Shown here: positions 17,975 to 56,749 of the stretch, in pieces
How positions within the stretch are numbered: the stretch's first letter is position 1
How the letters are laid out: each line of letters starts with the position of its first letter
IMG/VR virus record: IMGVR_UViG_3300017989_000096
Origin: an uncultured virus (IMG/VR IMGVR_UViG_3300017989_000096)
Taxonomy: Duplodnaviria; Heunggongvirae; Uroviricota; Caudoviricetes
Strand: one strand, 5' to 3'
DNA length: 64,000 nucleotides
Made by a program: the position numbers and the translations under genes
The notes under the pieces: model-generated
The model's database searches: none
What the model saw: the letters and a program-made list of their open reading frames with translations, nothing else
What the model was told of the DNA's origin: nothing

Positions 17975-18008
17975 TGAAATCTGTTAAATAATTAGAAAGG
18001 AGATTTCA
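17975..18008 (+). promoter_or_regulatory. GTTAAATAATT core within inverted repeat tgaaatct/agatttca
   Basis: Repeated intergenic motif; right arm abuts SD and ATG 18010. Confidence 0.7.
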
Positions 18009-18009
18009 T

Positions 18010-18543
18010 ATGCGCACACGTGATTCGCAAAGGAGCAAAGTGTATGCTGCGGAGCAGTTGTTTCGTGAGCGAATCGACAAAGAGAAGCAGCCGGAACTCT
18101 ATGCATTCGCAGAGGACAAACTGGAGCTGGAGGAGTTGCAAAAGCTGGTGAACCACTTGGTGAGTTTGGCTTGGTTCAAACGCCGGTGGTCGAGAGTTGG
18201 TGAGATCGAAGTCAGAGCTGGTGGACAAGGCAGAACGCATGCTTGTGGAGTGCGAGTTTTTGGAGGTGGGGTTGTCAAGCTTCCTGCTTGGTCAAGAACG
18301 AAGCTGGTTACTTTGCACGAGGTTGCTCACGTCTGCGCTTTTTCTTTGGAAGCTCATGGCAGACGTTTTTGCCGGACATTTATTGAGTTGGTGGAACATG
18401 AGGCAGGATATGAGGCGGGAAAGCTGTTGAAGAAATGTATGGACGAGAAAAGAGCGAGGTGGCGTAAGCGATACAAGCGTCCTGACTTGAAAGGTAAGAT
18501 GCCGCCTTTTGTGAAAGAAGCTGCTAAACCACAGGAGAAGTAA
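18010..18543 (+). CDS. HExxH metalloprotease-like (SprT-like) protein
   Basis: LVTLHEVAHV...AHGRRFCRTF. Confidence 0.75.
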   Translation: MRTRDSQRSKVYAAEQLFRERIDKEKQPELYAFAEDKLELEELQKLVNHLVSLAWFKRRWSRVGEIEVRAGGQGRTHACGVRVFGGGVVKLPAWSRTKLVTLHEVAHVCAFSLEAHGRRFCRTFIELVEHEAGYEAGKLLKKCMDEKRARWRKRYKRPDLKGKMPPFVKEAAKPQEK

Positions 18544-18969
18544 ATGCGAAAACTCATTATCATGCGGGGGCTTCCTGGTAGTGGAAAATCGTACACTGCC
18601 AAACGTCTTGCCAAAGACAAAGGCACAGTAGTGTCTGCGGATGATTATTTCATGGTCAATGGCAAGTACGTCTTCAATCGGGATGAAACGTACATTGCTC
18701 ATGCTCAGTGTCAGGCAAAGACGGCAAGGTTGATGGCTGGTGGTGCACCGCTTATTGTGATCGACAACACGAATGTCAAAGTGATGCACTACCAGGTATA
18801 TCTCGAACTGGCAAGAGAGTTCGAGTATGAGGAGGAGATTGTGTTTCCGGAGTACAAATTGGCATTCAAAAAGCCAAAAGTTTGGGATGTGGATTATCTG
18901 GCGTACAACAACAAACACGATGTTCCTTTGGAAGTGATTCAGCAAATGGCAGATGATTTTGAGTGGTAG
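18544..18969 (+). CDS. AAA_33/polynucleotide-kinase-like P-loop protein
   Basis: IMRGLPGSGKS, SADDYF, IVIDNTN, HDVPLEVIQQM. Confidence 0.85.
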   Translation: MRKLIIMRGLPGSGKSYTAKRLAKDKGTVVSADDYFMVNGKYVFNRDETYIAHAQCQAKTARLMAGGAPLIVIDNTNVKVMHYQVYLELAREFEYEEEIVFPEYKLAFKKPKVWDVDYLAYNNKHDVPLEVIQQMADDFEW

Positions 18970-18981
18970 AAAGGAGCTACA

Positions 18982-19242
18982 ATGCCTAAGCGTCAAAAGC
19001 ACATCGTTACAAATCAGTGGTTGTGTGTTGTTGCACGCGTCGCAAAGACGTCGCCAATCGCAACTGAAATCATCGAAGCATGTGATCGTGATGAAATTAC
19101 GAGAGTGCTTGTTACACAACGCATGCTTGCTCTGTCTTCTGACCCGAAAGAACTCCCCGATCCGGAGTTGGAAGCAACAGCACACTTGGAGTCAATCTGG
19201 AAGCATTTGGATAAGCATTATCCAAAGGAACTTTATGTTTAG
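18982..19242 (+). CDS. hypothetical protein
   Basis: AAGGAG RBS. Confidence 0.7.
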   Translation: MPKRQKHIVTNQWLCVVARVAKTSPIATEIIEACDRDEITRVLVTQRMLALSSDPKELPDPELEATAHLESIWKHLDKHYPKELYV

Positions 19243-19263
19243 AAAGCTGCGAATGAGTTCGAA

Positions 19264-19292
19264 AATCTGTTATAAATTGAACAGGAGAGATT
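19264..19292 (+). promoter_or_regulatory. promoter core variant in inverted repeat (ctgtt/aacag, aatct/agatt)
   Basis: ctgttataaattgaacaggagagatt. Confidence 0.55.
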
Positions 19293-19293
19293 A

Positions 19294-21561: not shown

Positions 21562-21672
21562 GCGTTGGATCGAAACACGACTCGAACTTGAAAGCATAAT
21601 GACTCCGAATAAAATGTTGTTTATCCCTCTCAGAAAATCAGAGATTTTGGCTGAAATTCTACAGGAGAAACG

Positions 21673-21712
21673 GAGTGAGAACTGTTTAATAAATGAAGAA
21701 CAGAAAACACTC
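21673..21712 (+). promoter_or_regulatory. promoter core in nested inverted repeats gagtg/cactc and ctgtt/aacag
   Basis: gagtgagaactgtttaataaatgaagaacagaaaacactc. Confidence 0.6.
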
Positions 21713-21729
21713 TGATAAAGGAGGGAACA

Positions 21730-24870: not shown

Positions 24871-24873
24871 CAC

Positions 24874-24909
24874 ACTCCGTTAAATAATTGTGGACAATTA
24901 TTACGGAGG
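24874..24909 (+). promoter_or_regulatory. palindromic promoter/RBS element, copy A
   Basis: actccgttaaataattg-tgga-caattattacggagg. Confidence 0.75.
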
Positions 24910-24915
24910 ACAAAA

Positions 24916-25611: not shown

Positions 25612-25672
25612 ATTACGACCATGCCGATATCTTTGAAAAACCTATAAGTTCTTGGCTGTCAATCAGTTTCGA

Positions 25673-25708
25673 ACTCCGTTATATAATTGAGGACAATTAT
25701 TACGGAGG
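25673..25708 (+). promoter_or_regulatory. palindromic promoter/RBS element, copy B
   Basis: actccgttatataattg-agga-caattattacggagg (34/36 identical to copy A). Confidence 0.75.
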
Positions 25709-25999
25709 GTTAAGAAATGGTTGACAAGGTCGTAATGATGCTCGCAAACGATGTGATTCTGCCAGGTGAAATGGCAGACGAGGAAGAGCTGGAAGAGGAA
25801 GCGAGAGAAGCATGCTGGCAGATGTACGAAGAGCATTTGATTCACGAAGCGGAGAAGGAAACTCAGATCATTGCGTACGAGAGGAAGGTGCGCTAATGAG
25901 AAAGCTGCTTTGGAGGATCAAACGTTGGTGGCGGGTTCGGAAGTTTTATCGTCCGAGTCGGGGAATGATTCGGAAATACAGGTACTAAGGAGAAAGAAA

Positions 26000-26491: not shown

Positions 26492-26515
26492 CTCCTGTTA
26501 AATAATTGAAAGGAG
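26492..26515 (+). promoter_or_regulatory. promoter core in ctcct/aggag inverted repeat
   Basis: ctcctgttaaataattgaaaggag. Confidence 0.7.
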
Positions 26516-29735: not shown

Positions 29736-29750
29736 CTGTTTTATAATTGA
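29736..29750 (+). promoter_or_regulatory. promoter core variant
   Basis: ctgttttataattga upstream of 29779. Confidence 0.6.
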
Positions 29751-29778
29751 GAGAAACTTATCTGAAAGGAGTTAAGCA

Positions 29779-38883: not shown

Positions 38884-38910
38884 AAGTCTCTCCGCTTTTG
38901 TTCTCTACAA

Positions 38911-38925
38911 CTGTTAAATAATTGA
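38911..38925 (+). promoter_or_regulatory. promoter core
   Basis: ctgttaaataattga immediately before AGGAG. Confidence 0.7.
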
Positions 38926-38937
38926 AGGAGTTATGTA

Positions 38938-39192
38938 ATGCAGTTGAATGAGAACGAAGCAAAAGTGATGAATGCACTGTTTAAGAGCAGCGCAGGAAAC
39001 GGACACGATTTTGGTTATACTGATGACGTTAACTGCGAAGAGCTGGGGATTACTCGTAGGCAGCTTTCGGGGTATGTTGCTCAGCTGTCCAAAAAGGGTT
39101 ATATCGAGCTCTATTACGATGAGTGGAACTCGTTCATTCTTACGCAAAAATACTGGGCCGAAAGTGGCAAGGTTGATGCATTTGTGGTTTGA
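38938..39192 (+). CDS. winged-helix-like protein
   Basis: ELGITRRQLSGYVAQLSKKGYI. Confidence 0.65.
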   Translation: MQLNENEAKVMNALFKSSAGNGHDFGYTDDVNCEELGITRRQLSGYVAQLSKKGYIELYYDEWNSFILTQKYWAESGKVDAFVV

Positions 39193-39268
39193 AAGGTAAG
39201 GCGCACACAAGGCTGTACCATTGCAGTGTAAAGGGGAAGTTCCTTTACCGCCTTACCTTTTCTTTTTC
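39192..39268 (+). terminator. branched hairpin followed by T tract
   Basis: aaaggtaaggcg/cgccttaccttt 12-bp stem enclosing two inner stems. Confidence 0.6.
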
Positions 39269-39333
39269 AAAAAAGAGCACGACTTTTCATATTGCAGCAG
39301 TTAAATAATTGAAGAGCAAACAAACTGCGGAGG
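39267..39333 (+). promoter_or_regulatory. extended promoter element (repeat with 40747)
   Basis: tcaaaaaagagcacgacttttcat..gcagttaaataattgaagagcaaacaaactgcggagg. Confidence 0.75.
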
Positions 39334-39341
39334 GTTGAAAA

Positions 39342-40746: not shown

Positions 40747-40819
40747 TCAAAAAAAGAGCTCGACTTTTCATGTCGTAGCAGTTAAATAATTGAAGAGCAA
40801 ACACTAACTGCTACGGAGG
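40747..40819 (+). promoter_or_regulatory. promoter core in perfect 11-bp inverted repeat cgtagcagtta/taactgctacg
   Basis: Right arm runs into GGAGG SD of 40826. Confidence 0.8.
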
Positions 40820-40825
40820 ATTAAA

Positions 40826-41805: not shown

Positions 41806-41820
41806 CTGTTAAATAAATGA
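41806..41820 (+). promoter_or_regulatory. promoter core variant
   Basis: ctgttaaataaatga. Confidence 0.6.
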
Positions 41821-41847
41821 GTAAACATATTTGCTGGAGGGCAAAAA

Positions 41848-42372: not shown

Positions 42373-42543
42373 AGTCAGACTTATTGGTGAAGACGGAAAT
42401 GCTTTTGCCATTCTTGGCAAGGTAAAGAAAGCTCTGATGAAAGCCGGAATGAAAAAAGAGGCTGAAGCGTACCAAAAAGAGGCTACCAGTGGGGATTACG
42501 ATCATCTGTTGACTGTGACTATGAAGTACGTGGAGGTTGTGTA

Positions 42544-43410: not shown

Positions 43411-43411
43411 G

Positions 43412-45675: not shown

Positions 45676-45706
45676 AGTTTTTCTTTTTGTGTGATATAAT
45701 TAAGCA

Positions 45707-46084
45707 ATGAAAACACTACAACTGATTGCTTTGTTGTTTTTTTGTGGGTGTTCTGTAGTACCAAAATGCGAGCAATACGAAATAACGGTCAAAGCGTATT
45801 GTCCATGCAAACTTTGTTGTGGAGAGTGGGCAGATGGTTTGACCAAACTGGAAACAGATGCATATCAACCAGGAGTTGCTGTCCCAAAAAATGGCCCTAT
45901 CCCATTGGGAGCAATAGTAGAAGTACCTGGTTACGGTGCTTATGTAGCGGATGATGTGGGTGGAAATTTGACCAAGTGGTGGAAAAAGGAAAAACGTTTA
46001 GTGATTGAGGTGCGATTCAAAACGCACGAGGAGGCTTTACAGTGGGGCAACCAGAAGCACAAAATTCGGGTATGGGCGAAATGA
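45707..46084 (+). CDS. 3D-domain (MltA-like peptidoglycan-acting) protein with lipoprotein-like signal
   Basis: LLFFCGC; AYCPC..CCG..ADGLT; IPLGAIVEVPGYG..VADDVGG; HEEALQWG. Confidence 0.8.
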   Translation: MKTLQLIALLFFCGCSVVPKCEQYEITVKAYCPCKLCCGEWADGLTKLETDAYQPGVAVPKNGPIPLGAIVEVPGYGAYVADDVGGNLTKWWKKEKRLVIEVRFKTHEEALQWGNQKHKIRVWAK

Positions 46085-46298
46085 GAAAAGAGCTGTCTCT
46101 GTTTGTTGTTGAGCATGCTGATGGCAGTGTAGGAGTGCAAGCATGTGAAAAGGAAGACGATGCGATATACTATTTTGAGAATTGCCATCAAGTGAAAGAT
46201 GGGGGCAAGGCTCGAATGACATTAGTTACAATTGAATTCGAAGACGTTCTGAAAGCTAAGGCACGAGTGAAATTTTTAAGAAAGTCGCCGACAAAATG

Positions 46299-46336
46299 AT
46301 ATGTCGCTCAGTTAAATAATTGAAGGAGCTACATAT
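46299..46336 (+). promoter_or_regulatory. promoter core in 10/11 inverted repeat atatgtcgctc/gagctacatat covering SD and start
   Basis: atatgtcgctcagttaaataattgaaggagctacatatg. Confidence 0.8.
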
Positions 46337-48560
46337 GGTTAGTGCTGTTGAGCGACAGGCAGTATCTGAAGTAGAAGAAGCACTGAAGGTGATTGCTTCA
46401 TGGATCGGTGGCAATCACAAGATCAGAATTGTCCATATTGCTCCTGGTGGCACACCACATGCAGACATAAGAGAGGGAGTACTGTACATTCCACCGATGA
46501 ATGGTTTGAAGGATTTGATGCAAGCACGCTCGTATTACTACCATGAGGCATTGCACATCTTACACACCAAACTAAAGCCGCCTAAAAACCAGACGTTGTT
46601 TGCGATACTTAACTCGCTTGAAGATTGGCGAATTGAGCATGAGGGTAGCAGAGCTTTGGCAGGGTGTAGAGTTGTGTTTGATTGGGAACACGAATTTTAT
46701 AACAAGAAGATTGCTACGCAAGTGATTTCGGGTGAAGCACAAAATTCACCTTTGTGGGAGGCACTCTGTGCAATGAATCTGATGACGCATGGGGTATCTC
46801 TTGTTTGGAAGCCAACCACTCTTGCTCAGCAATATGTTGATGCTGGATTGGATGTGTTCCAAGAGGTTCGGAGTGCGAAATCAACAGCAGATGCTCTTGT
46901 GGTTGCAGAAAAGCTATATGAGCTTTTCAAGCAGGTAAAAAAGGAGCAAATGCAGCAACAGCAACAACAGCAGCAACAGCAACAACAGCAGCAACAGCAA
47001 CAACAGCAACAACAGCAACAACAGCAGCAAAGTGACGGTGAGGAGTCACACACAAGTCAGTCGAAAGAAAACGAAGAGCAGTCACAAGAAGGTGGGAAGC
47101 AAAAGCAGAATAAGAAAGAGCAGAAAGACAAAAGTCAAGATGGGAAAGAACAACAGCAGCAGGGCGAGGGTCAGGGTGAAGAACAAAGCGAAGGCCAGGG
47201 TGAAGAGGAGCAGCAAGAAAAGAAGGGTGAAGTGGACCACGACAATTTAGCTTCTGCTGGTGATATGCCAGAAGAGGAAAACGATAACGAAGGTGAAGGT
47301 GGAGAAGAAGAGGAAGAAAGTAAGGAAGACAGCAAAGGACAGCAAGGTGAAAGTGGTGAAGAAGAGGAAGAAAGTAATAGTGAAGAAGGGGTGAGCAGTA
47401 AAGAAACTGGTGAAGGAAAAAGGAAGAGCGAAAATAAAGAGGGAACAGAGAAAGAAGCAAAAGGAGATGCACAACCAGGTGATGGTGGAGGAAAGTACAC
47501 TCCAGAGCAAAACAGGAAAGAAGATAAAGGAAAGGGCGGAGATGGTACTGATGAACTGCCAGAGCCTGATGACGATGAAATTGAAGAACAGCTGAAGAAA
47601 GAGTCAGCAGGAGACTCTGCTGGCGAAGTGTTACAAAAAGCATTGCAAGAAGAGCTGAAAAACATTCCGCCAGGTGATAAGAAATATGCCAGCGTTCGGG
47701 AAAACGATGTTTACCGGGTGCCAAATACGAGGTTGGAGGACAATAAGAGATTTGATGATCGACGCAAGCAAGTTGCAAATCCAATTCAAGGGATGAGTCG
47801 CTGCTTGGATCAGGCACTGCGTACGTTGGCACGTTGCAGAAAGAGACCTCTGCAAGTCAGAGGCAAGTTGGATATGAAGCAGCTGGTAGCAATTGGCAAG
47901 AATCTTTCGAAGCGAGTATTCTACACTATTGACAAAGGTCAAACATTGGACACTGCTGTTTCGATTGTTCTTGATGAGAGTGGTTCGATGAGTTACAACT
48001 ACCATGAGATTCAGCTGTTGGCAATTGCTTTAGGTGAAACACTGCAAAAGATCAAAGTGCCTTTTGAAATGATTGGATCGACGACCAAGTATATTGGTAG
48101 CCGTATTCCTTGGGAGTTGAGGTCGATAAAAGGCTATGATCGGACAAATCCATTGGTGTTCGACATTTTCAAAACGTTCAGTGAAAACTGGATGAGGGTG
48201 CGTTCCAGAATTACGAAATCGTTCCATTACAACCACAATGCTGATGGAGAAGCTGTTGAGGGTTGTGCACGACGTTTGATGATGAGACCAGAGAGTCGCA
48301 AGGTTATTTTCAGTCTTAGTGATGGCAGACCTGATGCGGGGCATGGGAATGGACAGAAGATGGGGACCTATCTACGTAAGGTTTGCAATGACTGTCGTAA
48401 GCGCGGGATAGAGGTTTATGGATTTGGGATTGGAACAGAGGAGCCAAGACAGTTTTATGGTACAAAATTCTTTGTTCATTTGGCTGATATTGGCTCGATG
48501 GGGATCAAGTTTTTCAAAGTGTTTGCTGATATCATTACGAAAGGCAGAGTCAGGGTATGA
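46335..48560 (+). CDS. CobT-like protein: N-terminal HExxH region, poly-Q/acidic linker, C-terminal VWA
   Basis: YYHEALH, NSLEDWRIE; MIDAS LDESGSM, NADGE, SLSDG. Confidence 0.85.
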   Translation: MVSAVERQAVSEVEEALKVIASWIGGNHKIRIVHIAPGGTPHADIREGVLYIPPMNGLKDLMQARSYYYHEALHILHTKLKPPKNQTLFAILNSLEDWRIEHEGSRALAGCRVVFDWEHEFYNKKIATQVISGEAQNSPLWEALCAMNLMTHGVSLVWKPTTLAQQYVDAGLDVFQEVRSAKSTADALVVAEKLYELFKQVKKEQMQQQQQQQQQQQQQQQQQQQQQQQQQQSDGEESHTSQSKENEEQSQEGGKQKQNKKEQKDKSQDGKEQQQQGEGQGEEQSEGQGEEEQQEKKGEVDHDNLASAGDMPEEENDNEGEGGEEEEESKEDSKGQQGESGEEEEESNSEEGVSSKETGEGKRKSENKEGTEKEAKGDAQPGDGGGKYTPEQNRKEDKGKGGDGTDELPEPDDDEIEEQLKKESAGDSAGEVLQKALQEELKNIPPGDKKYASVRENDVYRVPNTRLEDNKRFDDRRKQVANPIQGMSRCLDQALRTLARCRKRPLQVRGKLDMKQLVAIGKNLSKRVFYTIDKGQTLDTAVSIVLDESGSMSYNYHEIQLLAIALGETLQKIKVPFEMIGSTTKYIGSRIPWELRSIKGYDRTNPLVFDIFKTFSENWMRVRSRITKSFHYNHNADGEAVEGCARRLMMRPESRKVIFSLSDGRPDAGHGNGQKMGTYLRKVCNDCRKRGIEVYGFGIGTEEPRQFYGTKFFVHLADIGSMGIKFFKVFADIITKGRVRV
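46953..47030 (+). repeat. CAG/CAA trinucleotide tract encoding 26 Gln
   Basis: 78 nt of mixed CAG/CAA. Confidence 0.95.
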
Positions 48561-49312
48561 GAGGAACACCAGAAAACGTAGGAAAGCTGTTTCAAAAAGC
48601 CATGCGATGGATTGATAAAGGTGGCACAGGAACAGAATTAGCTGTTAATATTATGAAGAGCATGAGTGAAGTTTATGAAGCTGACGAAGAAACAGAGCCG
48701 GAGGTTAAGATGGTTACCAAACTAAGAATGAATCGTGTAGCACACTACTATGGTGGACGTAGTGACAAAGTATATATTGCGTCGGTGAGAGAGGTTTCAC
48801 CTGGCGAGTTCATTGTTGTAGGGAAGTATGGGCGCAGAGGCTCGTGGATGAAGGAACACATCAAGCCTGGAGAATACTCAGATGTCAATGTTGCAGTTGC
48901 AGAAGCAGAGGCACTTTTCCGTTCCAAGACAGAAAAGGGCTATGTTGATATTGATAGTCCGAACTATGACGGACCTGTTACATATCATGATGTTCGGGAG
49001 CATTTGGAACCTGAATTGGGTGATTGTAAAGTGATGAAAAAGAAGGTGGCAAAGAAGGGGGCAAAGAAGGTCGGTGTTTACGGACATCCTGGAATCGGCA
49101 AAACATCTACGGTGAAAAAGAAGCCGGTTGAGGAGAATTTTGTTGTTAAGTGTACCAACAACGATGGAATGGAGGATTGCTTTGATCTGAATGTGACCTA
49201 TATTGCTCGACGTCACAAGGTTGATTCAGAAATGTTTTTGGTGACGGATAAGTTAGGTCAAGAGCGTGAATGCTTCAATGATAGGTTTGAGATAACAGAT
49301 GATGAGGAATGA
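48557..49312 (+). CDS. WGR-like domain protein with C-terminal repeated module
   Basis: SDKVY...VVGKYGRRG...FRSKTEKGY; C-terminal VKCTNNDGMEDCFD..DKLGQERECFNDRF. Confidence 0.75.
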   Translation: MRGTPENVGKLFQKAMRWIDKGGTGTELAVNIMKSMSEVYEADEETEPEVKMVTKLRMNRVAHYYGGRSDKVYIASVREVSPGEFIVVGKYGRRGSWMKEHIKPGEYSDVNVAVAEAEALFRSKTEKGYVDIDSPNYDGPVTYHDVREHLEPELGDCKVMKKKVAKKGAKKVGVYGHPGIGKTSTVKKKPVEENFVVKCTNNDGMEDCFDLNVTYIARRHKVDSEMFLVTDKLGQERECFNDRFEITDDEE

Positions 49313-50088
49313 AGGTTGTGTCACGCATGAACAAAAAGCTGAAGAGGCTGTTAACTGAGGCTGCCAAAAAGAGATATGGTAAAAAGAATCCTCTTCCACC
49401 ATTCTATGACAAACTTGCCCTCACTGACAAGAATATCAAAGACGACTTGGTTAGGGAGTTGGTTGAGCTTGCGAAAAAGTTTAATCCCCAACAGTTTTCT
49501 ACCTTGTCACAAAATGATAAGGTCTTTGTGGGTTTGAAAAGAAATCTGCCAAAACACTTCCAGCGCGGAAGATTATATTACGCGTGGGATACGAGAGAAT
49601 TGTTTGCCTACAACGGTGGGCAATGGGCACGAATCGCGTGGGATGAAAGAGAGTTGACGCAAGAAGAAAAGATTGAGACTGCGCAGTCTATGGCCAAAGC
49701 CGGTCTTATGACCCCGAAAGATGCTGCCAGTTTCTCTGGTTTTAAGTTTGATGAAATTGCACCTCCACACTTGAACTGTTCACAATGCAAACATTATCAT
49801 GGAGGATCGTGTAGTCTTAACTCTACCCCGGCGGGTGAGTTGTGTGAAAGCTATGTTGCTATCGACAACCAAGTAGAAATTTCAGAGGAGGACTTTGGAG
49901 AAGGAATGTTTGAAGTTGAGTGCATTGACAACTCTGGAAAAGAAGAAGAGTTTGATATAGGGGTAACCTATATTGCAAAAAATCACGCTGATAAGACTAA
50001 TAGCGATATGATTATTGTGTTTGACAAGTTTGGCCAGGAGCAGGAATGCTTCAAGAATCGGTTTAAGAAGACGGAGAATTCATCATGA
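49309..50088 (+). CDS. hypothetical protein with C-terminal repeated module
   Basis: VECIDNSGKEEEFDIGVTY..DKFGQEQECFKNRF. Confidence 0.75.
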   Translation: MKVVSRMNKKLKRLLTEAAKKRYGKKNPLPPFYDKLALTDKNIKDDLVRELVELAKKFNPQQFSTLSQNDKVFVGLKRNLPKHFQRGRLYYAWDTRELFAYNGGQWARIAWDERELTQEEKIETAQSMAKAGLMTPKDAASFSGFKFDEIAPPHLNCSQCKHYHGGSCSLNSTPAGELCESYVAIDNQVEISEEDFGEGMFEVECIDNSGKEEEFDIGVTYIAKNHADKTNSDMIIVFDKFGQEQECFKNRFKKTENSS

Positions 50089-50741
50089 TTTTCATGAGAT
50101 ACAACGGTGGTGCTCCCGATGGGGATTTTACAGTCGGGAAGGTATACTTCGCACACGATGCATTGGAACATGAAGCAGTTGGGCGAACGGAGTTTTATGT
50201 TACTGATGACAACGACCAGAAGTTCAAATTCCGCTTTGATGATTATTTCCAAGAACTGGAAGAAGTCTATGCAGTTTGGCTTGGCGGGATTGAAGGAGTG
50301 GGTCTTGAGGTAGGCGAAACAGTTGTCATTGATCGCGCTGAAGATGATACCTTTGGAGCAGCAGGACATGGGTTTTTCAGACGAGAGCATTTTGAAATAC
50401 TTGATGGAACCAATCTTAAGCCAGGAGTGTATGTTTGCGATGTGCAAACAGGTCGATGGCTTAAGGTTATGAGGGTAGATGGCAAAATGAATCTGAGTAC
50501 GGAAGAGGATTCTGAAGTTTTTCATACGCCATTCGATTTCAAATTTGCTGTAGCGGATGGAGCGATTATCGATATGCCTATTGTCTATTGTGTGAATAGC
50601 ACAGGGATAGAAGAATTGACAGAAAGTGAAACATATGTTTTGGTTGCCAGTTTGAATGATATGGTTTGTGTCAAAAATGACAAAGGAGTAGTTGGAGAAT
50701 ATGATGCATCAAGATTTTCATGGGTACAGTCAGAAAATTGA
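50085..50741 (+). CDS. protein of tandem small beta modules
   Basis: FTVGKVY..VTDD; VYCVNSTGIEEL..KNDKG..SRF. Confidence 0.7.
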   Translation: MIFMRYNGGAPDGDFTVGKVYFAHDALEHEAVGRTEFYVTDDNDQKFKFRFDDYFQELEEVYAVWLGGIEGVGLEVGETVVIDRAEDDTFGAAGHGFFRREHFEILDGTNLKPGVYVCDVQTGRWLKVMRVDGKMNLSTEEDSEVFHTPFDFKFAVADGAIIDMPIVYCVNSTGIEELTESETYVLVASLNDMVCVKNDKGVVGEYDASRFSWVQSEN

Positions 50742-50758
50742 AAAAAGCTGTAGGGCAA

Positions 50759-50804
50759 CCGCAGATAAATCAGTTAATAAAATGAAGATACAAATAGGCT
50801 GCGG
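50759..50804 (+). promoter_or_regulatory. promoter core variant in ccgcag/ctgcgg inverted repeat
   Basis: cagttaataaaatga; right arm overlaps GGAGG. Confidence 0.6.
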
Positions 50805-50814
50805 AGGGTAGAAA

Positions 50815-51054
50815 ATGGTTTTTACGATGAGTACGGAGGAACAAGAGGTGGCAGAGCAGGTGGAAAGGCTGATGGAAGGACATTCAGCTTTGACCTACCA
50901 AATTGGTGATTCAGAGATTGCAGGGATTTTCAAAATCTTGCGCATGGCTCGCGTGAGACATTATTTGTCACTGAGAGGGATCGCGGTAGTAATTTCTTCC
51001 AAGGAAGGAAACATTGAAGAGATTAGGCTTATTCGTTTTCGGAGGGTTAAGTGA
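50815..51054 (+). CDS. stand-alone paralog of the downstream AAA ATPase N-terminal domain
   Basis: MVFTMSTEEQEV...LRMARVRHYLS vs MAFTMSAEEQEV...LRKSKVRHHLS. Confidence 0.8.
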   Translation: MVFTMSTEEQEVAEQVERLMEGHSALTYQIGDSEIAGIFKILRMARVRHYLSLRGIAVVISSKEGNIEEIRLIRFRRVK

Positions 51055-52283
51055 TGGCTTTTACGATGAGTGCGGAGGAACAAGAGGTTGTCAAACGCAC
51101 CAAACAATTGGTGGAAGAGCACGGGCGGTTGGATGTTTCGTGGGACGATCCAAAAGTCAAAGACATGGTGCCTACGCTGCGGAAATCGAAAGTACGGCAT
51201 CACCTGTCAACCGCTGAGCAGGTTGTAGTCAGTCTCGACCCAATCAACAAGCAAATTAGTCTGTTGAGATTGGGGGTTGCTTCGTCAAAGGCTGTTGCTA
51301 CTACCACGCCACAAACAGCACCAAAACCAAAAAAAGAGCCAGAGCCGGAAAAGCCGAAAGTTCCTACGCTGGGCAAGAAGCACAAGTACGAAAAGCCGTG
51401 GTTCCATGAAGACATGAAGAGAGCTATCCAAGCGGGTTTGGTGGTGCAGGGTGTTGGTGCACCTGGCACGGGCAAAACGCACCATGCTCATATCCTTGCT
51501 GATGAACTCAACATGGAACTGTTTTTGGTAAACTGCAACAGGGATATGGATATGGCTGCGGTGCTGGGAGAAAAAACAATCGCAATCGATGAGAAGACGA
51601 AGCAGAACTATGTCAAGTTCATGGAAGGGCCAGTTCTGCGAGCGATGACTTGTGGATTGGATGAGAAAGGAAATGAGGTAGGTCCAAAACCTGGACTGTT
51701 GGTGCTGGATGAATTTCCAACTACGCCAACGTGGATCGCAATCGGGTTGAACAACATGCTCGATAGTTTTGAAGAGCGACGTAAGGTCTGTGTTACAACC
51801 GATGGTGGACGAAGAGTTACTGCTCACAGTGGATTTAGAATTGTGCTGTTCGGCAATACGATTGGGCGTGGACATGTTGATGAGAAGGATCATTTGCTGA
51901 CAGCTCAGGCAGATGCACTGGACTATAGTACGCTTAGTCGTTACGAGGCGACATTCGAGTACTACTGGAACGAGAAGGCGGAAGCAAACATTCTGAGGCA
52001 AAAGATTGGCGATGATCGAATCGTAAAAGATGTACTGAAGTTTCGTGATGCAATTCGGGATCAGATGCGTCTCAACAATGTGGATACGATGCTGACCACA
52101 AGGCACATTGTTACTATCGGGAAGAGTTATGGAGTTTACAGCGGTGACATTGGAAAGGCAATCTACTTTGGTGTCATCACTAATGTGCCTGGGAATGAGC
52201 GTCAGATTTTCAATGAAGCAGCGCAAGTTGCTTTGGGTGAAGACCTTGAAAGGAAATATCGCCCAACACGTCGACGCAGTTAA
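51054..52283 (+). CDS. MoxR/CobS-like AAA+ ATPase
   Basis: GAPGTGKT, EGPVLRAM, LVLDE, AHSGFRI..GNT, ALDYSTLSRY. Confidence 0.85.
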   Translation: MAFTMSAEEQEVVKRTKQLVEEHGRLDVSWDDPKVKDMVPTLRKSKVRHHLSTAEQVVVSLDPINKQISLLRLGVASSKAVATTTPQTAPKPKKEPEPEKPKVPTLGKKHKYEKPWFHEDMKRAIQAGLVVQGVGAPGTGKTHHAHILADELNMELFLVNCNRDMDMAAVLGEKTIAIDEKTKQNYVKFMEGPVLRAMTCGLDEKGNEVGPKPGLLVLDEFPTTPTWIAIGLNNMLDSFEERRKVCVTTDGGRRVTAHSGFRIVLFGNTIGRGHVDEKDHLLTAQADALDYSTLSRYEATFEYYWNEKAEANILRQKIGDDRIVKDVLKFRDAIRDQMRLNNVDTMLTTRHIVTIGKSYGVYSGDIGKAIYFGVITNVPGNERQIFNEAAQVALGEDLERKYRPTRRRS

Positions 52284-52306
52284 CCCTCCGGCATCAGCCA
52301 AGCGGC

Positions 52307-52335
52307 GAGGGGTAGGTTTAGCCAGCCTACCCCTC
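52307..52335 (+). terminator. GC-rich 10-bp hairpin
   Basis: gaggggtagg/cctacccctc; no T tail. Confidence 0.45.
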
Positions 52336-52352
52336 AAATGGAGGGAAGCATA

Positions 52353-52790
52353 ATGGACGTCAATCGATACTTGATTTATGAGATGCTGGATAAGCAAATT
52401 TGGTTCAAACTTCCGGATCGGTTAGGAGGAGGTCAAGTTCGAGGAAATGTTGTTGATGTCTATCGTAACGTCATCACAAACGAAATAGAGATTACTCTTA
52501 GCAGAGAAGAAAAATTTGTATTTCGTGAGCCGGATAGCATTGTGAGGGCTGACGAAAACACGATTTTGTTTGTATATGGAAGTGAAGATGTAGATACTGA
52601 CGACGATTTCTTTGAGGAATTGAGAAAAGCTTCAGAACAAGGTTTGGGAGCTGACCAAGTTTTCAAGTCAATGCAAAAAACCAGTGTGATTGTTAGTTTC
52701 ACAGTGAGGGAACCAAAACAAAGCGGCACGTTTGAAAGCAAACGTTCCCAAACACAGAGACTCAGAAAGCTTGAAGAAGAACAAAATTAG
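52353..52790 (+). CDS. hypothetical protein
   Basis: GGAGG RBS. Confidence 0.7.
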   Translation: MDVNRYLIYEMLDKQIWFKLPDRLGGGQVRGNVVDVYRNVITNEIEITLSREEKFVFREPDSIVRADENTILFVYGSEDVDTDDDFFEELRKASEQGLGADQVFKSMQKTSVIVSFTVREPKQSGTFESKRSQTQRLRKLEEEQN

Positions 52791-52891
52791 AAAAATAAAA
52801 CAAGTCAAAAAACTGAGACGTAAGAGGTTATATAATTAGAGTGAAGTTTAAGTTGTGTGTTGTCAGACATTTAGCGTAAGGAGGTAAGCTT

Positions 52892-53779
52892 ATGGTAAGG
52901 GTTTTGAAGCAGGTCAAAGTTCTCGGCTATGAAGTCAAAGCCGAGTTGATGGACACTGTCATTCCTGCATCAGTTGTCAAAGAAACCGCAGAGATTTGCG
53001 GCTTGACGGCACGATACATTCCCAGAGATAGTCGGAAGAGGGCAGTTATTCGTGCTGCTCATGCTGTTTGCAAAACGCTCAAGGATGGTACGCAGAGTAG
53101 GCACGGTCAGTTTCGTGACCATCTCGCTCGCAGAATTCACGAGAATGGAGAGTCATTCGTGATGGGGATTGTGGATGAAGCACGAGATGAAGCTCACGAG
53201 GAACTGAACTACGAAAAAACGACAACGGTGCGACTCAACAAAAACACAAAGCATGTGGACGCAAAAGGTGAGAAAGCGGATGCATTCATGGAGGAGTATA
53301 GTCTGTACGCTTCAGGTTTGACCTCCGATGACATTCGCAGTGGGTTCATCTACAAAATCATCAGAGAGGACTGTCAGGGTGTTGCTCTGATTCGAACGGG
53401 TGGACTCTACTTTGTACCCGAACAGTACCTGCCTACGATCCAGGCTCTCAACAGGTTTTGCAGTGAGTTGGGTCTTGGTCGTATCTGGTTCGACATGAAG
53501 GTTGAATCGGATGAGTCGCAGGAATGGATTTGGGAGTGTGCCAAGCGCGAGGTCAAGGTCAAGGTCGATACGATCATGCGGGATGTTGACAACCTTGGCA
53601 GAATCAGTAGTGTGCAGAAGCGTCAGCTAAGTCTTGAAGAGAGTGCTGGACTGCTGAAGGCTTATGCTGAGCTGACTGGTTACGGTGCTGAAGCGGAGGA
53701 TTTGCTCAACGAGATCAACAATGCAAGCGAAACAGTCGCAAAGAGACTGGCAGAAGTGGAAGCTGCTAAGTCTGCGTAG
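52892..53779 (+). CDS. conserved phage hypothetical protein
   Basis: AAGGAGGT RBS; TGGLYFVP; ggttatataattaga core upstream at 52826. Confidence 0.8.
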   Translation: MVRVLKQVKVLGYEVKAELMDTVIPASVVKETAEICGLTARYIPRDSRKRAVIRAAHAVCKTLKDGTQSRHGQFRDHLARRIHENGESFVMGIVDEARDEAHEELNYEKTTTVRLNKNTKHVDAKGEKADAFMEEYSLYASGLTSDDIRSGFIYKIIREDCQGVALIRTGGLYFVPEQYLPTIQALNRFCSELGLGRIWFDMKVESDESQEWIWECAKREVKVKVDTIMRDVDNLGRISSVQKRQLSLEESAGLLKAYAELTGYGAEAEDLLNEINNASETVAKRLAEVEAAKSA

Positions 53780-53802: not shown

Positions 53803-53834
53803 GAAAGGCCCTCTAAATGAGGGCCTTTCTCTTT
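53803..53834 (+). terminator. Rho-independent terminator
   Basis: gaaaggccctc-taaat-gagggcctttc-tcttt. Confidence 0.75.
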
Positions 53835-54741: not shown

Positions 54742-54759
54742 TTGTAAAAGGAGAACATT

Positions 54760-55989
54760 ATGAAAAAGAAAGATTCTGTAGGTATCCCTGGGATTTGTAT
54801 CAGGAAGATTTTGGACATTTATCTTACTCCAGACAATATGGCACAGCATGCTGAGTTGCCTAAGTTTGTAGGAGATAGGAATCTGGACAAAAAACATGTT
54901 GCCTATTTGCGTCGTTCAATGGAGGAGGGCAGTTTTTTGTGGGAACATGTTACCCTTGCTGTTTGTTGGCTTGGAAGAAAAATGTACAGGCTCAACGGCA
55001 ATCATGTATCGCACGCAGTATGTGATATGCCTGTGAAATTCAAATCACCTCGCAAAGTTCATTATGTCGTCTACGAAGCCAAAGCAGAAGACGCAATGAG
55101 GCAACTGTATAATTTGGTTGATGAGATGAAGCGGCGCACAAAGTCAGACAAAATCAAAGGCAGGTTGTATAAAACTAAGCAGTTGAAAAAGATTGACGAT
55201 CCGAAGTCTTTGGAAAAAATCATGAATGGGTTTAATCAGTTTCTCATGAAAGATATTTGGAATTCCAAAAGACGGATTCGTGCGAGCGAATTCAAACCGC
55301 AGTCAGAGTCTGAGTCTGTCAATGAGTTGGCCAAAGAAGCTCTTGGCAAGAAAAACAAGTACGTGCTTGCGATTGCGAAGCTGTTGGGTCAATGCGAATC
55401 CAACAAAAAGCATGCTTGGTGGAAAGAGTCCATTGCAATGATGTTCTTGACCTACGAATATTTTCCAAAAGATTTGAGGTCTTTCTGGAATATGGTTATA
55501 ACGGGTGCAGGAATGAAAACTGAGACAGACCCACGTTGGCGTCTTCGCGAACTATTGCAAAATCCAAAATTACAAATATCAGGTGGGAGTGTTGAGAAGA
55601 TTACCGGGATAAGATTGTACCAATGCATAGCCTATGCTTTTGTAGTGTGGAAGAACGGTCAACCAATTCGAAAGCTTGCACACTTTACGAAATCATTTGT
55701 AATTCCAGATGTTGTGCAATGTTTTTCCGAACCAAAAGGACCTATTGCCAGAAGGCTTCTTTGTGCAAAACAGGTTCAGCAAAGTCCAATTACCGATACT
55801 GTGATAGAAATCGTCCGTAATAGCAATGGAGTAGGCATAGCACCAAGAAAAATTGTTAAGGTGGCTGAAGGGTACGGTTTCAATCCACACAGTGTTTCAA
55901 CCGTTTTGAGTCGTCAAGTCAAGAATGGCGTTCTCAAAAAAGACAAAGGCTTGTATTTTATTGGTGGAACAAATTGGAAAAGACTTTGA
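54760..55989 (+). CDS. ParB/DndB-like N-terminal domain protein with C-terminal winged helix
   Basis: DRNLDKKHV..L..SMEEG, RLNGNHV (DGQHR-like). Confidence 0.55.
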   Translation: MKKKDSVGIPGICIRKILDIYLTPDNMAQHAELPKFVGDRNLDKKHVAYLRRSMEEGSFLWEHVTLAVCWLGRKMYRLNGNHVSHAVCDMPVKFKSPRKVHYVVYEAKAEDAMRQLYNLVDEMKRRTKSDKIKGRLYKTKQLKKIDDPKSLEKIMNGFNQFLMKDIWNSKRRIRASEFKPQSESESVNELAKEALGKKNKYVLAIAKLLGQCESNKKHAWWKESIAMMFLTYEYFPKDLRSFWNMVITGAGMKTETDPRWRLRELLQNPKLQISGGSVEKITGIRLYQCIAYAFVVWKNGQPIRKLAHFTKSFVIPDVVQCFSEPKGPIARRLLCAKQVQQSPITDTVIEIVRNSNGVGIAPRKIVKVAEGYGFNPHSVSTVLSRQVKNGVLKKDKGLYFIGGTNWKRL

Positions 55990-55999
55990 AAACGAAAGG

Positions 56000-56033
56000 C
56001 GAATCTGATATAACTGTTTGAAAAGGAGATTCG
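56000..56033 (+). promoter_or_regulatory. promoter variant in cgaatct/agattcg inverted repeat
   Basis: cgaatctgatataactgtttgaaaaggagattcg. Confidence 0.55.
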
Positions 56034-56035
56034 TC

Positions 56036-56680
56036 ATGTCCAAATTGGCAATTGTTGAAGAAGCGCTAAAATCGCGCAAAGAGGACTTGTTTCGTCTCAA
56101 GGTAGAAAATGAGGCTTTGGACAAACAGATTGAGAAAAATGCCAAGCGTATTCTTGAGTGTACTACTCAATTGGAGATTGGACAGGAAGCACTTCAGTTT
56201 CTTGAAGACGTTGCAAATACACGCCGTGGAGTAATGAAATCTCAGATCGAAAAAATCGTTTCTGAAGCATTGGCATTGATTTACGGTCCCAGCTATAGAG
56301 TCGAATTGGTTTATGATGTGAAGAACAATCGCAGTTCGATGGAGATAGAGTTGGTCAGAAAGACGGCTGACGGAGAAGTTCGTACTGGTATGAATCTGCA
56401 TGGTGGTGGAGTTTCAGATACGATTAGTGTCCCTTTGAGGTTGTTAGTGCTTTTGGCATCACGGCAGACGGATAGAGTTTGTTTGTTAGATGAACCTTGG
56501 AAATATATGGATTTGACAGAGCGGATTGAGCGCGTAGCTGAATTTGTTGGCGAGGTTTCTCGCCGTCTTGGTTTACAAATGGTTATGTGTTCCCACCATG
56601 AGATAATGCATTCCACAGCAAATAGTGCATGGCATGTAGCAGATGATAATGGAAAAGCAATCGTCAAAAAAATCAAATAA
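56036..56680 (+). CDS. SbcC/Rad50-like C-terminal ABC-ATPase half with coiled coil
   Basis: LHGGG signature-like, LLDEP Walker B, CSH H-loop; no Walker A. Confidence 0.75.
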   Translation: MSKLAIVEEALKSRKEDLFRLKVENEALDKQIEKNAKRILECTTQLEIGQEALQFLEDVANTRRGVMKSQIEKIVSEALALIYGPSYRVELVYDVKNNRSSMEIELVRKTADGEVRTGMNLHGGGVSDTISVPLRLLVLLASRQTDRVCLLDEPWKYMDLTERIERVAEFVGEVSRRLGLQMVMCSHHEIMHSTANSAWHVADDNGKAIVKKIK

Positions 56681-56696
56681 ACTGTTGGCATTCCTA

Positions 56697-56749
56697 TCTT
56701 GCTCCAGTTAAATAATTGAAGAACAATTTCTATTTGCTGGAGGGCAAGA
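56697..56749 (+). promoter_or_regulatory. promoter core in bulged inverted repeat tcttgctccag/ctggagggcaaga covering SD
   Basis: cagttaaataattga core. Confidence 0.8.

Follow-up and report, generated by a model that had tools for sequence, protein, structure and literature searches.

In the window, a 64,000-nt stretch of one strand of IMG/VR record IMGVR_UViG_3300017989_000096 (Caudoviricetes, uncultured virus), the two flanks of a short repeated core are complementary to each other in a locus-specific way; this complementarity is genuine and is confined to about half of the sites. Computation supports potential pairing of the upstream flank with the SD/start region of the downstream gene at about half of the sites. 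On computational grounds, the core itself appears to behave like a promoter: it shows strand specificity, an intergenic location, and a TATAAT-like hexamer; at 17981 and 39298 it follows terminator-like hairpins; and its placement ahead of the CobT-like, AAA_5, and DUF6744 genes is kept in relatives. Phage T4 already offers a known case of RBS hiding in read-through RNA, and we lean towards reading the core as a phage-specific promoter with an untranscribed upstream part that serves as an anti-RBS in read-through RNA, as at T4 e, soc, 49, and I-TevI.

A repeated core upstream of start codons

The sequence GTTAWATAATTGA, with at most one mismatch, has 10 matches in the window, all on the + strand (10/10), compared with 0.33 +/- 0.60 in 100 shuffles. 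A PWM built from these 10 matches identified 13 + strand sites with a score of at least 19 (17981, 21682, 24877, 25676, 26495, 29736, 38911, 39298, 40779, 41806, 46309, 50771, and 56705), scores that are partly circular because the PWM was trained on its own GTTAWATAATTGA matches. Lower-scoring + strand matches are found at positions 3100, 48642, and 50727; three matches in all fall on the minus strand, each scoring 8 or less, and none of them is strong. Sequence outside long ORFs makes up 6.5% of the window and holds 10 of the 13 strong cores wholly and one mostly. An earlier note had claimed 16 intergenic cores: this stands for the strong sites, 11 of 13 being wholly or mostly intergenic. 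Three of the 16 are degenerate, TATAAT-like forms of the core: 19267, which has a 1-nt deletion, 52826, and 56005. The core lies 11-51 nt upstream of a start codon at all 16 sites, and each start codon is preceded by an SD. Most sites have AATAAT as the hexamer; 25676, 29736, and 52826 have TATAAT. A tract rich in A lies upstream of the core; no -35 box is conserved across the window's core sites. Sites that lack a hairpin conserve the core equally well. The sites and their predicted structures are as follows (fold z for the single site; RBS opening in kcal/mol).

17981..17996, +: core CTGTTAAATAATTAGA, PWM 19.1, fold z -1.75; arms 17975-17982 TGAAATCT / 18001-18008 AGATTTCA, an 8-bp stem over the SD ending 1 nt before ATG 18010; RBS opening 10.7 vs 2.2
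19267..19282, +: degenerate core CTGTTATAAATTGAAC, ATG 19294 downstream; flank stem only 5 bp; fold z +0.07, hairpin not above chance
21682..21697, +: core CTGTTTAATAAATGAA, PWM 22.3, ATG 21730, fold z -4.38; hairpin 21671-21677 / 21708-21714 plus inner CUGUUU/AACAG helix brackets the core and ends before the SD; no RBS unmasking (-0.6)
24877..24892, +: core CCGTTAAATAATTGTG, ATG 24916, fold z -2.89; arms CTCCGT..AATAATTG 24875-24890 / CAATTATT.ACGGAG 24895-24908, right arm over SD; RBS opening 8.9 vs 3.5
25676..25691, +: core CCGTTATATAATTGAG, near-copy of the 24877 cassette, ATG 25717, fold z -2.88; arms 25674-25689 / 25694-25707
26495..26510, +: core CTGTTAAATAATTGAA, PWM 25.3, ATG 26523, fold z -1.24; arms CTCCT/AGGAG only, 26492-26496 / 26511-15, 5 bp, chance level for a single site
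29736..29751, +: core CTGTTTTATAATTGAG, PWM 19.4, ATG 29779, fold z 0.0; no significant bracketing hairpin
38911..38926, +: core CTGTTAAATAATTGAA, PWM 26.4, adjoins SD GGAG, ATG 38938; flanks pair over 4 bp, no bracketing stem, fold z +0.19
39298..39313, +: core CAGTTAAATAATTGAA, then leader GAGCAAAC, PWM 26.1, ATG 39342, fold z -0.94; weak arms 39297-39302 / 39323-39328; CGACUUUUC also pairs with GGAGGGUUG
40779..40794, +: core CAGTTAAATAATTGAA, then leader GAGCAAAC, ATG 40826, fold z -2.55; arms 40774-40784 CGTAGCAGTTA / 40805-40815 TAACTGCTACG, an 11-bp perfect stem adjoining SD GGAGG; RBS opening 11.8 vs 5.2
41806..41821, +: core CTGTTAAATAAATGAG, PWM 20.4, ATG 41848, fold z -0.74; no bracketing hairpin, SD in loop of a small local hairpin
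46309..46324, +: core CAGTTAAATAATTGAA, ATG 46335 of a CobT-like gene; arms 46299-46309 ATATGTcGCTC / 46326-46336 GAGCtACATAT, an 11-bp stem with one mismatch, right arm over SD and the A and T of the start ATG; fold z -4.43, reached in 0/200 shuffles; RBS opening 9.4 vs 1.7
50771..50786, +: core variant CAGTTAATAAAATGAA, ATG 50815 of a small ORF before an AAA_5 gene, fold z -0.74; arms 50759-50764 CCGCAG / 50799-50804 CTGCGG, 6 bp, overlapping SD; unmasking only 0.3
52826..52841, +: degenerate GGTTATATAATTAGAG, PWM 6.7, ATG 52892 of a DUF6744 gene; no bracketing hairpin, fold z -1.13, core-to-SD span unbridged
56005..56020, +: degenerate CTGATATAACTGTTTG, ATG 56036, fold z -1.46; arms 55998-56006 GGCGAATCT / 56027-56035 AGATTCGTC overlap SD, 7-bp perfect stem, 9-bp helix in the fold; RBS opening 9.3 vs 3.9
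56705..56720, +: core CAGTTAAATAATTGAA, ATG 56751, fold z -2.16; arms 56697-56708 TCTTGCTCCAGT / 56737-56749 GCTGGAGGGCAAGA, with a bulge, over SD; RBS opening 13.3 vs 7.0

The sites 24877/25676 and 39298/40779 are two pairs of near-identical cassettes; 24877 and 25676, as near-copies of a single cassette, are not independent. The cores at 17981 and 39298 each follow a strong terminator-like hairpin and precede the next start codon:

17859..17923, +: long terminator-like hairpin with a CCUCCCUUUUUCCC tail after it, -36.1 kcal/mol, z -6.8, closing the core-free upstream block
39192..39260, +: branched terminator-like hairpin followed by UUUUCUUUUUC, -32.3 kcal/mol, z -3.9, located 38 nt upstream of core 39298

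Terminator-like sites occur at chance frequency (20 vs 17.0 +/- 4.3; 18 vs 15.5 +/- 4.7) and all genes in the window are co-directional, so read-through is plausible. The search for a phage sigma factor or RNA polymerase suggested in the earlier note recognised none among the genes of the 64-kb window, and there was no match to an Rfam family.

Predicted pairing between core flanks and ribosome-binding sites

Perfect bracketing stems of at least 6 bp were found at 9 of the 16 sites; the rate was 12% in 1376 geometry-matched placements drawn from 86 control genes and 20% in 240 swaps of flanks. In all nine, the right arm lies on or directly next to the SD or start codon, a placement that the earlier note had given as usual. 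The 21682 hairpin stops short of the SD. The arm pairs quoted there are all present in the sequence (46309 with one mismatch, 56705 with a bulge). As a set, the flanks pair above the permuted and control levels, with genuine complementarity at only about half of the sites; CTCCT/AGGAG at 26495, just 5 bp, is at chance level. A notable bracketing hairpin is missing at 19267, 29736, 38911, 41806, and 52826. Taken singly, six of 16 sites have a fold z of -2 or lower (21682, 24877, 25676, 40779, 46309, and 56705). From locus to locus, the arms change in position, length, and sequence, and loops of 14-54 nt separate them. The predicted helices are short (6-11 bp; whole fold -9 to -20 kcal/mol), and masking may therefore be partial; the stems at 40779 and 46309 reach well past the SD.

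Shuffled flanks were among the checks proposed in the earlier note. Under permutation of the real flanks, which retains composition and the common core, the duplex energy summed over own flank pairs was -174.9 kcal/mol vs -132.9 +/- 9.0 (z -4.7), a sum reached in 0/5000 permutations. Robust variants gave z -3.4 to -6.2, dropping weak or paralogous sites gave z -4.0 to -4.9, and with one member of each similar site pair removed the observed sum was reached in 0/10000 permutations. The signal is weak when the core's first six bases are left out of the left arm (z -1.7, p 0.046), and the own-flank excess is absent at the 86 motif-less genes (z about -1). When the left flank alone was dinucleotide-shuffled, only 4/16 sites stood out at 5% or below and 12/16 had p above 0.05; few sites are significant by this measure because any CU-rich flank can pair with GGAGG.

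The cost of opening the RBS was predicted for read-through RNA and after truncation at the presumed TSS, and compared with control genes. Predicted opening in read-through RNA was 8.4 kcal/mol for core genes vs 6.3 for control genes (p 0.007), and predicted relief upon truncation was 3.7 vs 1.7 kcal/mol (p 0.007). These predicted values are in line with the proposed RBS masking, but a masking hairpin is lacking at 5-7 of the 16 sites. Together with the restriction of the core to one 39-kb block of the 64-kb window and an effect in 8/11 loci of relatives, this makes the earlier wording, "genome-wide" and "systematically", an overstatement.

A two-box promoter in distant relatives

Distant relatives carry a different, two-box promoter, CCGGATT-N14-GCAATRG, with a spacing from CCGGATT to GCAATR of exactly 14 nt in 43/48 + strand pairs and no minus-strand pairs. 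The motif precedes CobT-like, AAA_5, and DUF6744 genes, as the core does in the window, and the leader after its boxes, GAGAGCAAC, matches GAGCAAAC 3' of cores 39298 and 40779. In some relatives there is complementarity between the 14-nt spacer and the SD region. Among 42 promoters from 11 loci, the sum for own spacer/leader pairs was -461.7 vs -394.6 +/- 14.8 when permuted across all (0/20000), and permutation within locus gave p about 0.001. Predicted relief upon truncation was 6.0 vs 2.1 kcal/mol (p 5e-6); predicted read-through RBS opening was not above that of control genes (8.7 vs 7.6, p 0.18). The own-pair advantage is present in 8 of the 11 loci and missing in L012, L039, and L059, and 8/42 promoters fall short of the average by 3 kcal/mol or more. 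Part of the related clade thus repeats, with unrelated sequences, the placement of the left arm within the spacer of the promoter.

Proposed mechanism, alternatives, and known systems

We infer the promoter identity, TSS position, existence of read-through RNA, and translational effect. The 16-nt core C-N-GTTA-AATAAT-TGAA would be the -10 region (AATAAT/TATAAT hexamer together with conserved neighbouring bases) of a phage-specific class of promoters, which would drive a block of co-directional, non-structural genes belonging to a large uncultivated phage. Transcription would probably start ~5-7 nt 3' of the hexamer, near the conserved GAA-G/A; a TSS 7 nt after AATAAT would place the starts of 17981, 26495, 38911, and 46309 inside or at the SD, which is unusual. 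At roughly half of the promoters, DNA at or just before the start of the core, complementary to the SD/start codon of the downstream gene, would not be transcribed from the gene's own promoter. Read-through RNA would carry both arms and fold the RBS into a helix of 6-14 bp, while RNA from the own promoter would be without the 5' arm and leave the RBS open, a proposal by which translation of such genes would be tied to their own promoter.

It is unlikely that the core is a promoter whose hairpins have no translational role and serve as attenuators or terminators, as stability or processing elements for incoming transcripts, or as recombination-prone cassettes, as proposed for the PeSL (promoter-early stem-loop) cassettes of RB49/phi1. 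PMC2839356 describes the PeSL as intergenic promoter and stem-loop cassettes ending in SD and start codon; the stem-loops are located over the -10 box or in the -35 to -10 interval, and one of them has terminator activity in a reporter. The near-identical cassettes at 24877/25676 and 39298/40779 are what cassette shuffling would yield, and the 21682 hairpin leaves its SD untouched. Against attenuation or termination, a U tract follows the right arm in 0 sites, arms 14-54 nt apart do not make a compact GC-rich hairpin, and the 9/9 placement on SD/start is needless for a terminator. RNase III requires stems of roughly 20 bp, and those seen here fall far below the length needed for processing. 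Slightly less probable is that the complementarity is functionless, a by-product of CU-rich flanks facing a purine-rich SD, together with duplicated cassettes and the choice of the best among many pairs. Left-flank shuffles do pair nearly as well at many sites (12/16), 5-bp CTCC(T)/(A)GGAG matches are generic, there are two paralogous cassette pairs, and the effect is absent in three relative loci; yet composition-keeping permutation never reached the observed sum, even with similar pairs thinned, the excess is absent at motif-less genes, 11-bp stems (perfect at 40779, one mismatch at 46309) run well past the SD, and the effect is seen again in relatives with unrelated sequences.

The motif could also act as RNA, a conserved AU-rich loop sequence on a variable SD-holding stem targeted by a phage repressor or activator protein (RegA-, Com-, or coat-protein-like) or an endonuclease, which we consider quite improbable. 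In the predicted hairpins the core does occupy the loop, always near an SD and 11-51 nt from the start codon, in a window with no recognised sigma factor or RNA polymerase. It is, however, equally conserved where the hairpin is absent, contains a canonical TATAAT/AATAAT hexamer, and has no Rfam match; at 17981 and 39298 it follows terminator-like hairpins, where re-initiation is needed, and the relatives' rigid 14-nt two-box arrangement with upstream A/T tracts is typical of sigma-type promoters. The earlier note's own alternative, that the hairpin itself is the promoter determinant, extruded in DNA and read by a phage RNAP like the N4 virion enzyme, is very improbable and was not borne out. 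Polymerases of their own are common in large phages, and inverted repeats surround the core at about half of the sites; but the loops span 14-54 nt, the arms are variable in position, length, and sequence, the hairpin is missing at 5-7/16 sites despite an intact core, and the relatives show a fixed-spacing, sigma-type geometry.

Of the known systems, N4 virion RNAP promoters share with the window an inverted repeat at a phage promoter. The N4 hairpins have a 5-7 bp stem and a 3-nt loop and are conserved and required, unlike the window's long-looped, locus-specific, and often absent structures. The PeSL of RB49/phi1 (Arbiol et al. 2010, PMC2839356) are likewise repeated intergenic cassettes of AT-rich tract, promoter, overlapping stem-loop, SD, and start, with near-identical copies at several loci. 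Their stem-loops are described there as compact, often GGGG...CCCC, and as terminators and recombination sites, whereas the window arms straddle the -10 region and presumed TSS, are locus-specific, and use the RBS as right arm, at promoters with no conserved -35 box. The T4 precedent invoked in the earlier note (e, soc, 49, I-TevI) matches the descriptions of promoter-in-hairpin translational occlusion in PMC3014915 and PMC2988022, which cover T4 e, soc, 49, I-TevI/II/III, and segB and Aeh1 mobE. In those accounts, as proposed here, SD and/or start codon pairs with sequence upstream of a gene-proximal promoter, own-promoter transcripts are without the 5' strand, and the genes lie in long co-directional units. 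The window differs in coming from an unrelated uncultivated phage, with a promoter GTTAAATAATTGA rather than TATAAATA, in the putative use of this design at about 9/16 promoter sites in one 39-kb block vs a handful of late genes, and in the genes concerned, which are non-structural (CobT-like, ATPases, and unknowns).

The promoter-like core

The sequence GTTAWATAATTGA, allowing at most one mismatch, has 10 matches in the window, each of them on the + strand; the shuffled controls gave 0.33 +/- 0.60. A weight matrix (PWM) built from these 10 matches identified 13 strong sites on the + strand between 17981 and 56705 (each site is named by the first position of its core), with weaker + strand sites at 3100, 48642, and 50727; on the minus strand no site scored comparably. 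The conserved stretch reads C-N-GTTA-AATAAT-TGAA, its mid-core hexamer being AATAAT at most sites and TATAAT at three; among the 16 sites listed in the earlier note, those at 19267, 52826, and 56005 are degenerate variants resembling TATAAT. Of the 13 strong cores, ten lie entirely within the 6.5% of the window outside long ORFs, and all 16 sites stand 11-51 nt upstream of a start codon having a Shine-Dalgarno sequence (SD). A search for a conserved -35 box upstream of the window cores found none, only A-richness and loose yGRC/TTGAC/CGAC-like words at variable distance.

The core is called a promoter because of its AATAAT/TATAAT hexamer, its position after terminator-like hairpins at 17981 and 39298, and the occurrence in relatives of a two-box motif before the same genes. 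Each of these two cores has a strong terminator-like hairpin with a pyrimidine/U tail before it and the next start codon after it. Strong hairpins were observed at 17859-17923, 39192-39260, 52307-52335, and 53803-53829 (-25 to -36 kcal/mol, z -3.8 to -6.8), and a pyrimidine/U-rich tail follows three of the four. They probably mark the limits of transcription units; the long or branched loops of the two largest made a simple terminator scan miss them. Promoter cassettes also occur as two near-identical pairs. The segments 39260-39325 and 40744-40805 have in common an upstream A-tract, GAGC-CGACTTTTCAT, and the leader GAGCAAAC, and the segments 24871-24912 and 25670-25712 have in common CTCCGTTAWATAATTG-GGACAATTATTACGGAGG, sites 24877 and 25676 being copies of a single cassette; both pairs look like duplicated or shuffled cassettes.

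A phage sigma factor or RNA polymerase that might read the core, which the earlier note had proposed to look for, was not recognized: in the window, which covers part of the genome, Pfam and PHROGs searches of 118 ORFs returned no sigma factor, RNA polymerase, or gp55-like sigma/gp33, nor did a more lenient scan with 20 of the ORFs, and neither a sigma factor nor an RNA polymerase appeared among 94 ORFs of six relative loci. Counts of sigma-70 consensus promoters were at or below chance, and an Rfam scan returned no family.

Flank complementarity and the ribosome-binding site

The earlier note had described locus-specific complementary arms around the core, and every arm pair that it quoted was found in the window. 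When left flanks (20 nt upstream plus the first 6 core bases) were permuted against right flanks (core position 14 through the start codon), the sum for the sites' own pairs was -174.9 kcal/mol against -132.9 +/- 9.0, with 0/5000 permutations as low. The result held for the 13 strong sites alone (z -4.2), without 25676 (z -4.0), with one of each similar pair removed (z -4.1), with a longer left flank (z -3.4), and with the left arm extended to core position 15 (z -6.2). With core bases left out of the left arm, z fell to -1.7 (p 0.046), which indicates that the first core bases take part in much of the pairing. Perfect bracketing stems of at least 6 bp were present at 9/16 sites, against 12% in geometry-matched placements at 86 control genes and 20% in flank swaps. 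The earlier note's observation of the core and its complementary flanks is confirmed.

It could be argued that the complementarity is a by-product of composition or duplication. The same permutation test on 86 motif-less genes gave -0.3 kcal/mol per gene (z about -1), against -2.6 at motif sites. Taken individually against shuffled left flanks, 12/16 sites were not significant, and whole-fold z values, computed against shuffles, varied widely among sites.

Whole-fold z of each core site
46309: z -4.4
21682: z -4.4
24877: z -2.9
25676: z -2.9
40779: z -2.6
56705: z -2.2
17981: z -1.75
56005: z -1.5
26495: z -1.2
52826: z -1.1
39298: z -0.9
41806: z -0.7
50771: z -0.7
19267, 29736, 38911: z about 0

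At each of the nine sites with a perfect stem, the right arm lies on or directly beside the SD or start codon. The cost of opening positions -15 to +3 around the start codon, in RNA beginning at -80, was predicted to be 8.4 kcal/mol for the 16 motif genes and 6.3 for 86 control genes (Mann-Whitney p 0.007). With the RNA truncated at core position 16, this predicted cost fell by 3.7 kcal/mol, against 1.7 in length-matched control truncations (p 0.007), and the predicted gain reached 4.9-8.6 kcal/mol at eight sites. The earlier proposal that the hairpins form a translational gate thus stands in part: pairing of the ribosome-binding site (RBS) is predicted at 9/16 sites, and RBS-masking pairing is missing at 19267, 21682, 29736, 38911, 41806, and 52826, of which 21682 folds strongly and leaves its SD free. 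Describing the gate as genome-wide was too broad, as no strong core occurs in the first 17.9 kb or last 7 kb of the window and the design is found at about half of the promoters seen.

The phage, its relatives and their two-box element

The window is read as part of an uncultivated large phage, possibly related to jumbo phages. Its GC content is about 0.44, with a strong purine skew and SDs of the GGAGG type; its long ORFs are all on the + strand, and a tRNA scan of the window found none. Pfam and PHROGs named only non-structural functions among the 118 ORFs.

Functions named in the window by Pfam/PHROGs
CCA-adding enzyme; AAA_33 kinase; Prim-Pol; two radical-SAM proteins; NADAR; PD-(D/E)XK exonuclease
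ATP-dependent ligase; CobT-like VWA protein; WGR; AAA_5 ATPase; DUF6744

Megablast against 50,697 phage records gave no match to the window, and protein matches found by tblastn were distant and partial (identities <60%, at most 38% of the query covered). For the CobT-like protein, relatives with 35-50% identity turned up in metagenomes, including one on a contig of 338 kb. The runs listed as containing window 38800-47000 of the same phage numbered four, all of DNA and from sediment and seawater, with no RNA run among them. An 80.6-kb metagenome contig (L008) also holds the same phage, with 100% protein identity across the CobT-like gene; by our arithmetic it begins at about window 40397 and extends about 57 kb beyond the 3' end of the window, and the rest of the phage genome may be recoverable through it.

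Several features of gene content were noted in passing. A module conserved across the clade (window 46335-53779 and relatives) comprises the CobT-like VWA protein, a WGR protein, one or two unknowns, and an AAA_5 (CobS/MoxR-like) ATPase, followed farther along by the AAA_33 kinase, DUF6744, and the ligase. DUF6744 is fused to a HARE-HTH domain in relatives and for this reason may bind DNA or RNA polymerase; T4 gp30.3-like and LpxR-like genes are also present in relatives. The peptide motif VA-x-EL-x-K-IA-K-x-L occurs at least 20 times in window 1401-13240 and at 16978, mostly 5-6 residues past the start Met of otherwise unlike small ORFs (e.g., MDNKKVAAELLKIAKSL, MNSKQVAQELLKIADSL). These ORFs look like a multigene family or carriers of a common N-terminal helix, possibly a targeting signal, and none of their genes has a promoter core. 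An intergenic word, ACACGTTAA(A/T).., is repeated at window 1219-1385 and 59728-59760 (AACACGTTAAAGCGA, AGCACGTTAAAGCGA, AACACGTTAATTACG).

Relatives of the CobT-like locus have a recurrent upstream element of their own, CCGGATT followed by GCAATR, preceded by T/A-rich tracts. The gap between the boxes is exactly 14 nt in 43/48 + strand pairs and in no minus-strand pair. The element precedes the CobT-like, AAA_5, and DUF6744 genes, the same genes that follow window cores 46309, 50771, and 52826. After the second box many relatives run ..GAGAGCAAC.., resembling the GAGCAAAC that follows window cores 39298 and 40779; this likeness of leaders suggests that the window core and the relatives' motif belong to a homologous promoter class, with transcription starting a few bases past the hexamer. 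In full, the motif is tttt-CCGGATT-N14-(t)GCAATRGtg, seen in loci L012, L015, L016, L019, L030, L032, L039, L045, and L059 (e.g., L019:761-800), with the boxes CTCTGGATTT..TGCAATGT in L016 and TCAGAATCC..CGTGCAATGA in L045. Other relatives have upstream motifs of their own, ..CCGATAATAG, ..GACAGTATAG, and ..GGTGATCTACC (L046:9926, 11699, 14523, 17836; L052:1270-9954; L021:1493-11991); at L046:14523 a 12-bp arm, CACAAAGCTGCC / GGCAGTTTTGTG, with one G-U, brackets the box and abuts the SD.

Pairing between spacer and leader/SD was evaluated in 42 non-redundant two-box promoters with a recognizable start codon from 11 loci (37/44 regex matches plus 5 from L045). The sum for own pairs was -461.7, compared with -394.6 +/- 14.8 when permuted over all (0/20000) and -408.9 +/- 16.4 when permuted within loci (p about 0.001). 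Own pairs were better than average in 8/11 loci, strongly so in L015, L016, L019, L030, and L032, with no advantage at L012, L039, and L059; by promoter, 17/42 were better by at least 3 kcal/mol and 8/42 worse by at least 3 (Wilcoxon p 0.013). At L019:761 the spacer and SD region pair over 11 bp (GAGAGACCTCC/GGAGGTCTCTC), and at L015:5059 the pair CATGCGTCT/AGACGCATG includes the start codon. Opening the RBS in the relatives' read-through RNA was not predicted to cost more than at 125 control genes (8.7 vs 7.6, p 0.18), but truncation brought greater relief (6.0 vs 2.1, p 5e-6). In part of the clade, then, the design recurs although the sequences are unrelated, which points to selection on the pairing; it is not universal there.

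The window core was found at PWM >=14 in none of 76 relative loci, and a 17-nt core search of the viral_contigs set returned seven contigs with one match each, consistent with chance. Two-box matches in viral_contigs were set aside, as there was one per contig among the matches listed and 14 specified bases make this consistent with chance. A protein-pattern scan of the same set for close relatives returned none, and phage megablast, tblastn, and viral_contigs scans together supplied no close relatives for true covariation. A literature search found no description of the two-box motif or of later systematic promoter/RBS hairpins, which is weak evidence of their absence from print.

Mechanism, rival explanations and known systems

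The best-supported reading of these folding predictions is a T4-type occlusion with the promoter inside the hairpin. In read-through RNA, which arrives from upstream and holds both arms, the SD or start codon would be paired with the upstream arm, and RNA from the gene's own promoter would be without the 5' arm. Read-through is plausible because the genes are co-directional and terminator-like sites in the window occur at chance frequency. No left arm reaches beyond core position 15, and from the position of the AATAAT/TATAAT hexamer we infer that the promoter lies between the arms. According to the excerpted text of two reviews, the SD and/or AUG of T4 e, soc, 49, and I-TevI are sequestered in long early transcripts, and transcripts from late promoters just upstream are without the 5' strand; the effect for e is quoted as 100-fold, and I-TevII/III, segB, and mobE of phage Aeh1 have comparable arrangements (PMC3014915, PMC2988022). 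The excerpted text of PMC10914365 contains nothing on RBS masking.

Other roles for the hairpins have to be weighed against T4-type occlusion. The arms might serve in attenuation or recombination, like PeSL cassettes, which in the excerpted text of PMC2839356 combine a strong sigma-70-like early promoter with a compact terminating stem-loop; the window, however, has no conserved -35 box, arms 14-54 nt apart, and no U tract after the right arm. They might also act as an RNA-level operator. The alternative raised in the earlier note, that the hairpin itself is the promoter determinant, would make it a DNA hairpin promoter such as that of the N4 vRNAP, for which a small conserved hairpin with a short stem and a 3-nt loop is required. 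The window speaks against this, since its loops are 14-54 nt, its arms are locus-specific, and 5-7 of the 16 cores have no hairpin. Reading the hairpins as RNase III sites was rejected because the stems are too short.

A much broader proposal, which we regard as doubtful, is that an entire lineage of uncultivated large phages employs the promoter portion that is not transcribed as a programmable anti-RBS (boxes GTTAAATAATTGA here, CCGGATT-N14-GCAATRG in relatives), tying translation of the gated genes to their own promoter in terminator-poor, co-directional genomes. Such an insulation or timing code would persist through ongoing co-evolution between spacer and RBS, and a putative phage transcription factor would take part in reading it; if so, it would be a general code, not an oddity of a few T4 late genes. 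Should the gate work as predicted, the T4 device of a promoter inside an RBS hairpin would not be confined to T-even phages and would be a recurrent solution for packing genes head to tail with few terminators, letting a gene ignore upstream transcription. The two promoter models (the window core and CCGGATT-N14-GCAATRG) are usable to annotate transcription units in metagenomic phage contigs, and the promoter and anti-RBS cassettes, as natural, compact, sequence-programmable insulators, are candidate parts for synthetic biology.

The T4 late promoter, which depends on gp55/gp33, has TATAAATA as its -10 element, and the window core has GTTAAATA, agreeing at 6/8 positions and so differing from the T4 late -10 element; a -35 box is absent at window cores too, and unlike the T4 late promoter the core is conserved across 16 nt. 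A bipartite sigma-70 promoter has its -35 and -10 hexamers about 17 bp apart. The window has a -10-like hexamer with no conserved -35, and the relatives have two boxes at a fixed 14 nt but with sequences other than TTGACA/TATAAT. The view that a known translational-occlusion device recurs in the window, in a phage lineage and with a promoter motif that are both new to it, is partly supported by these predictions. As the mechanism is already known from T4-type systems, the gain would be one of breadth, not principle.
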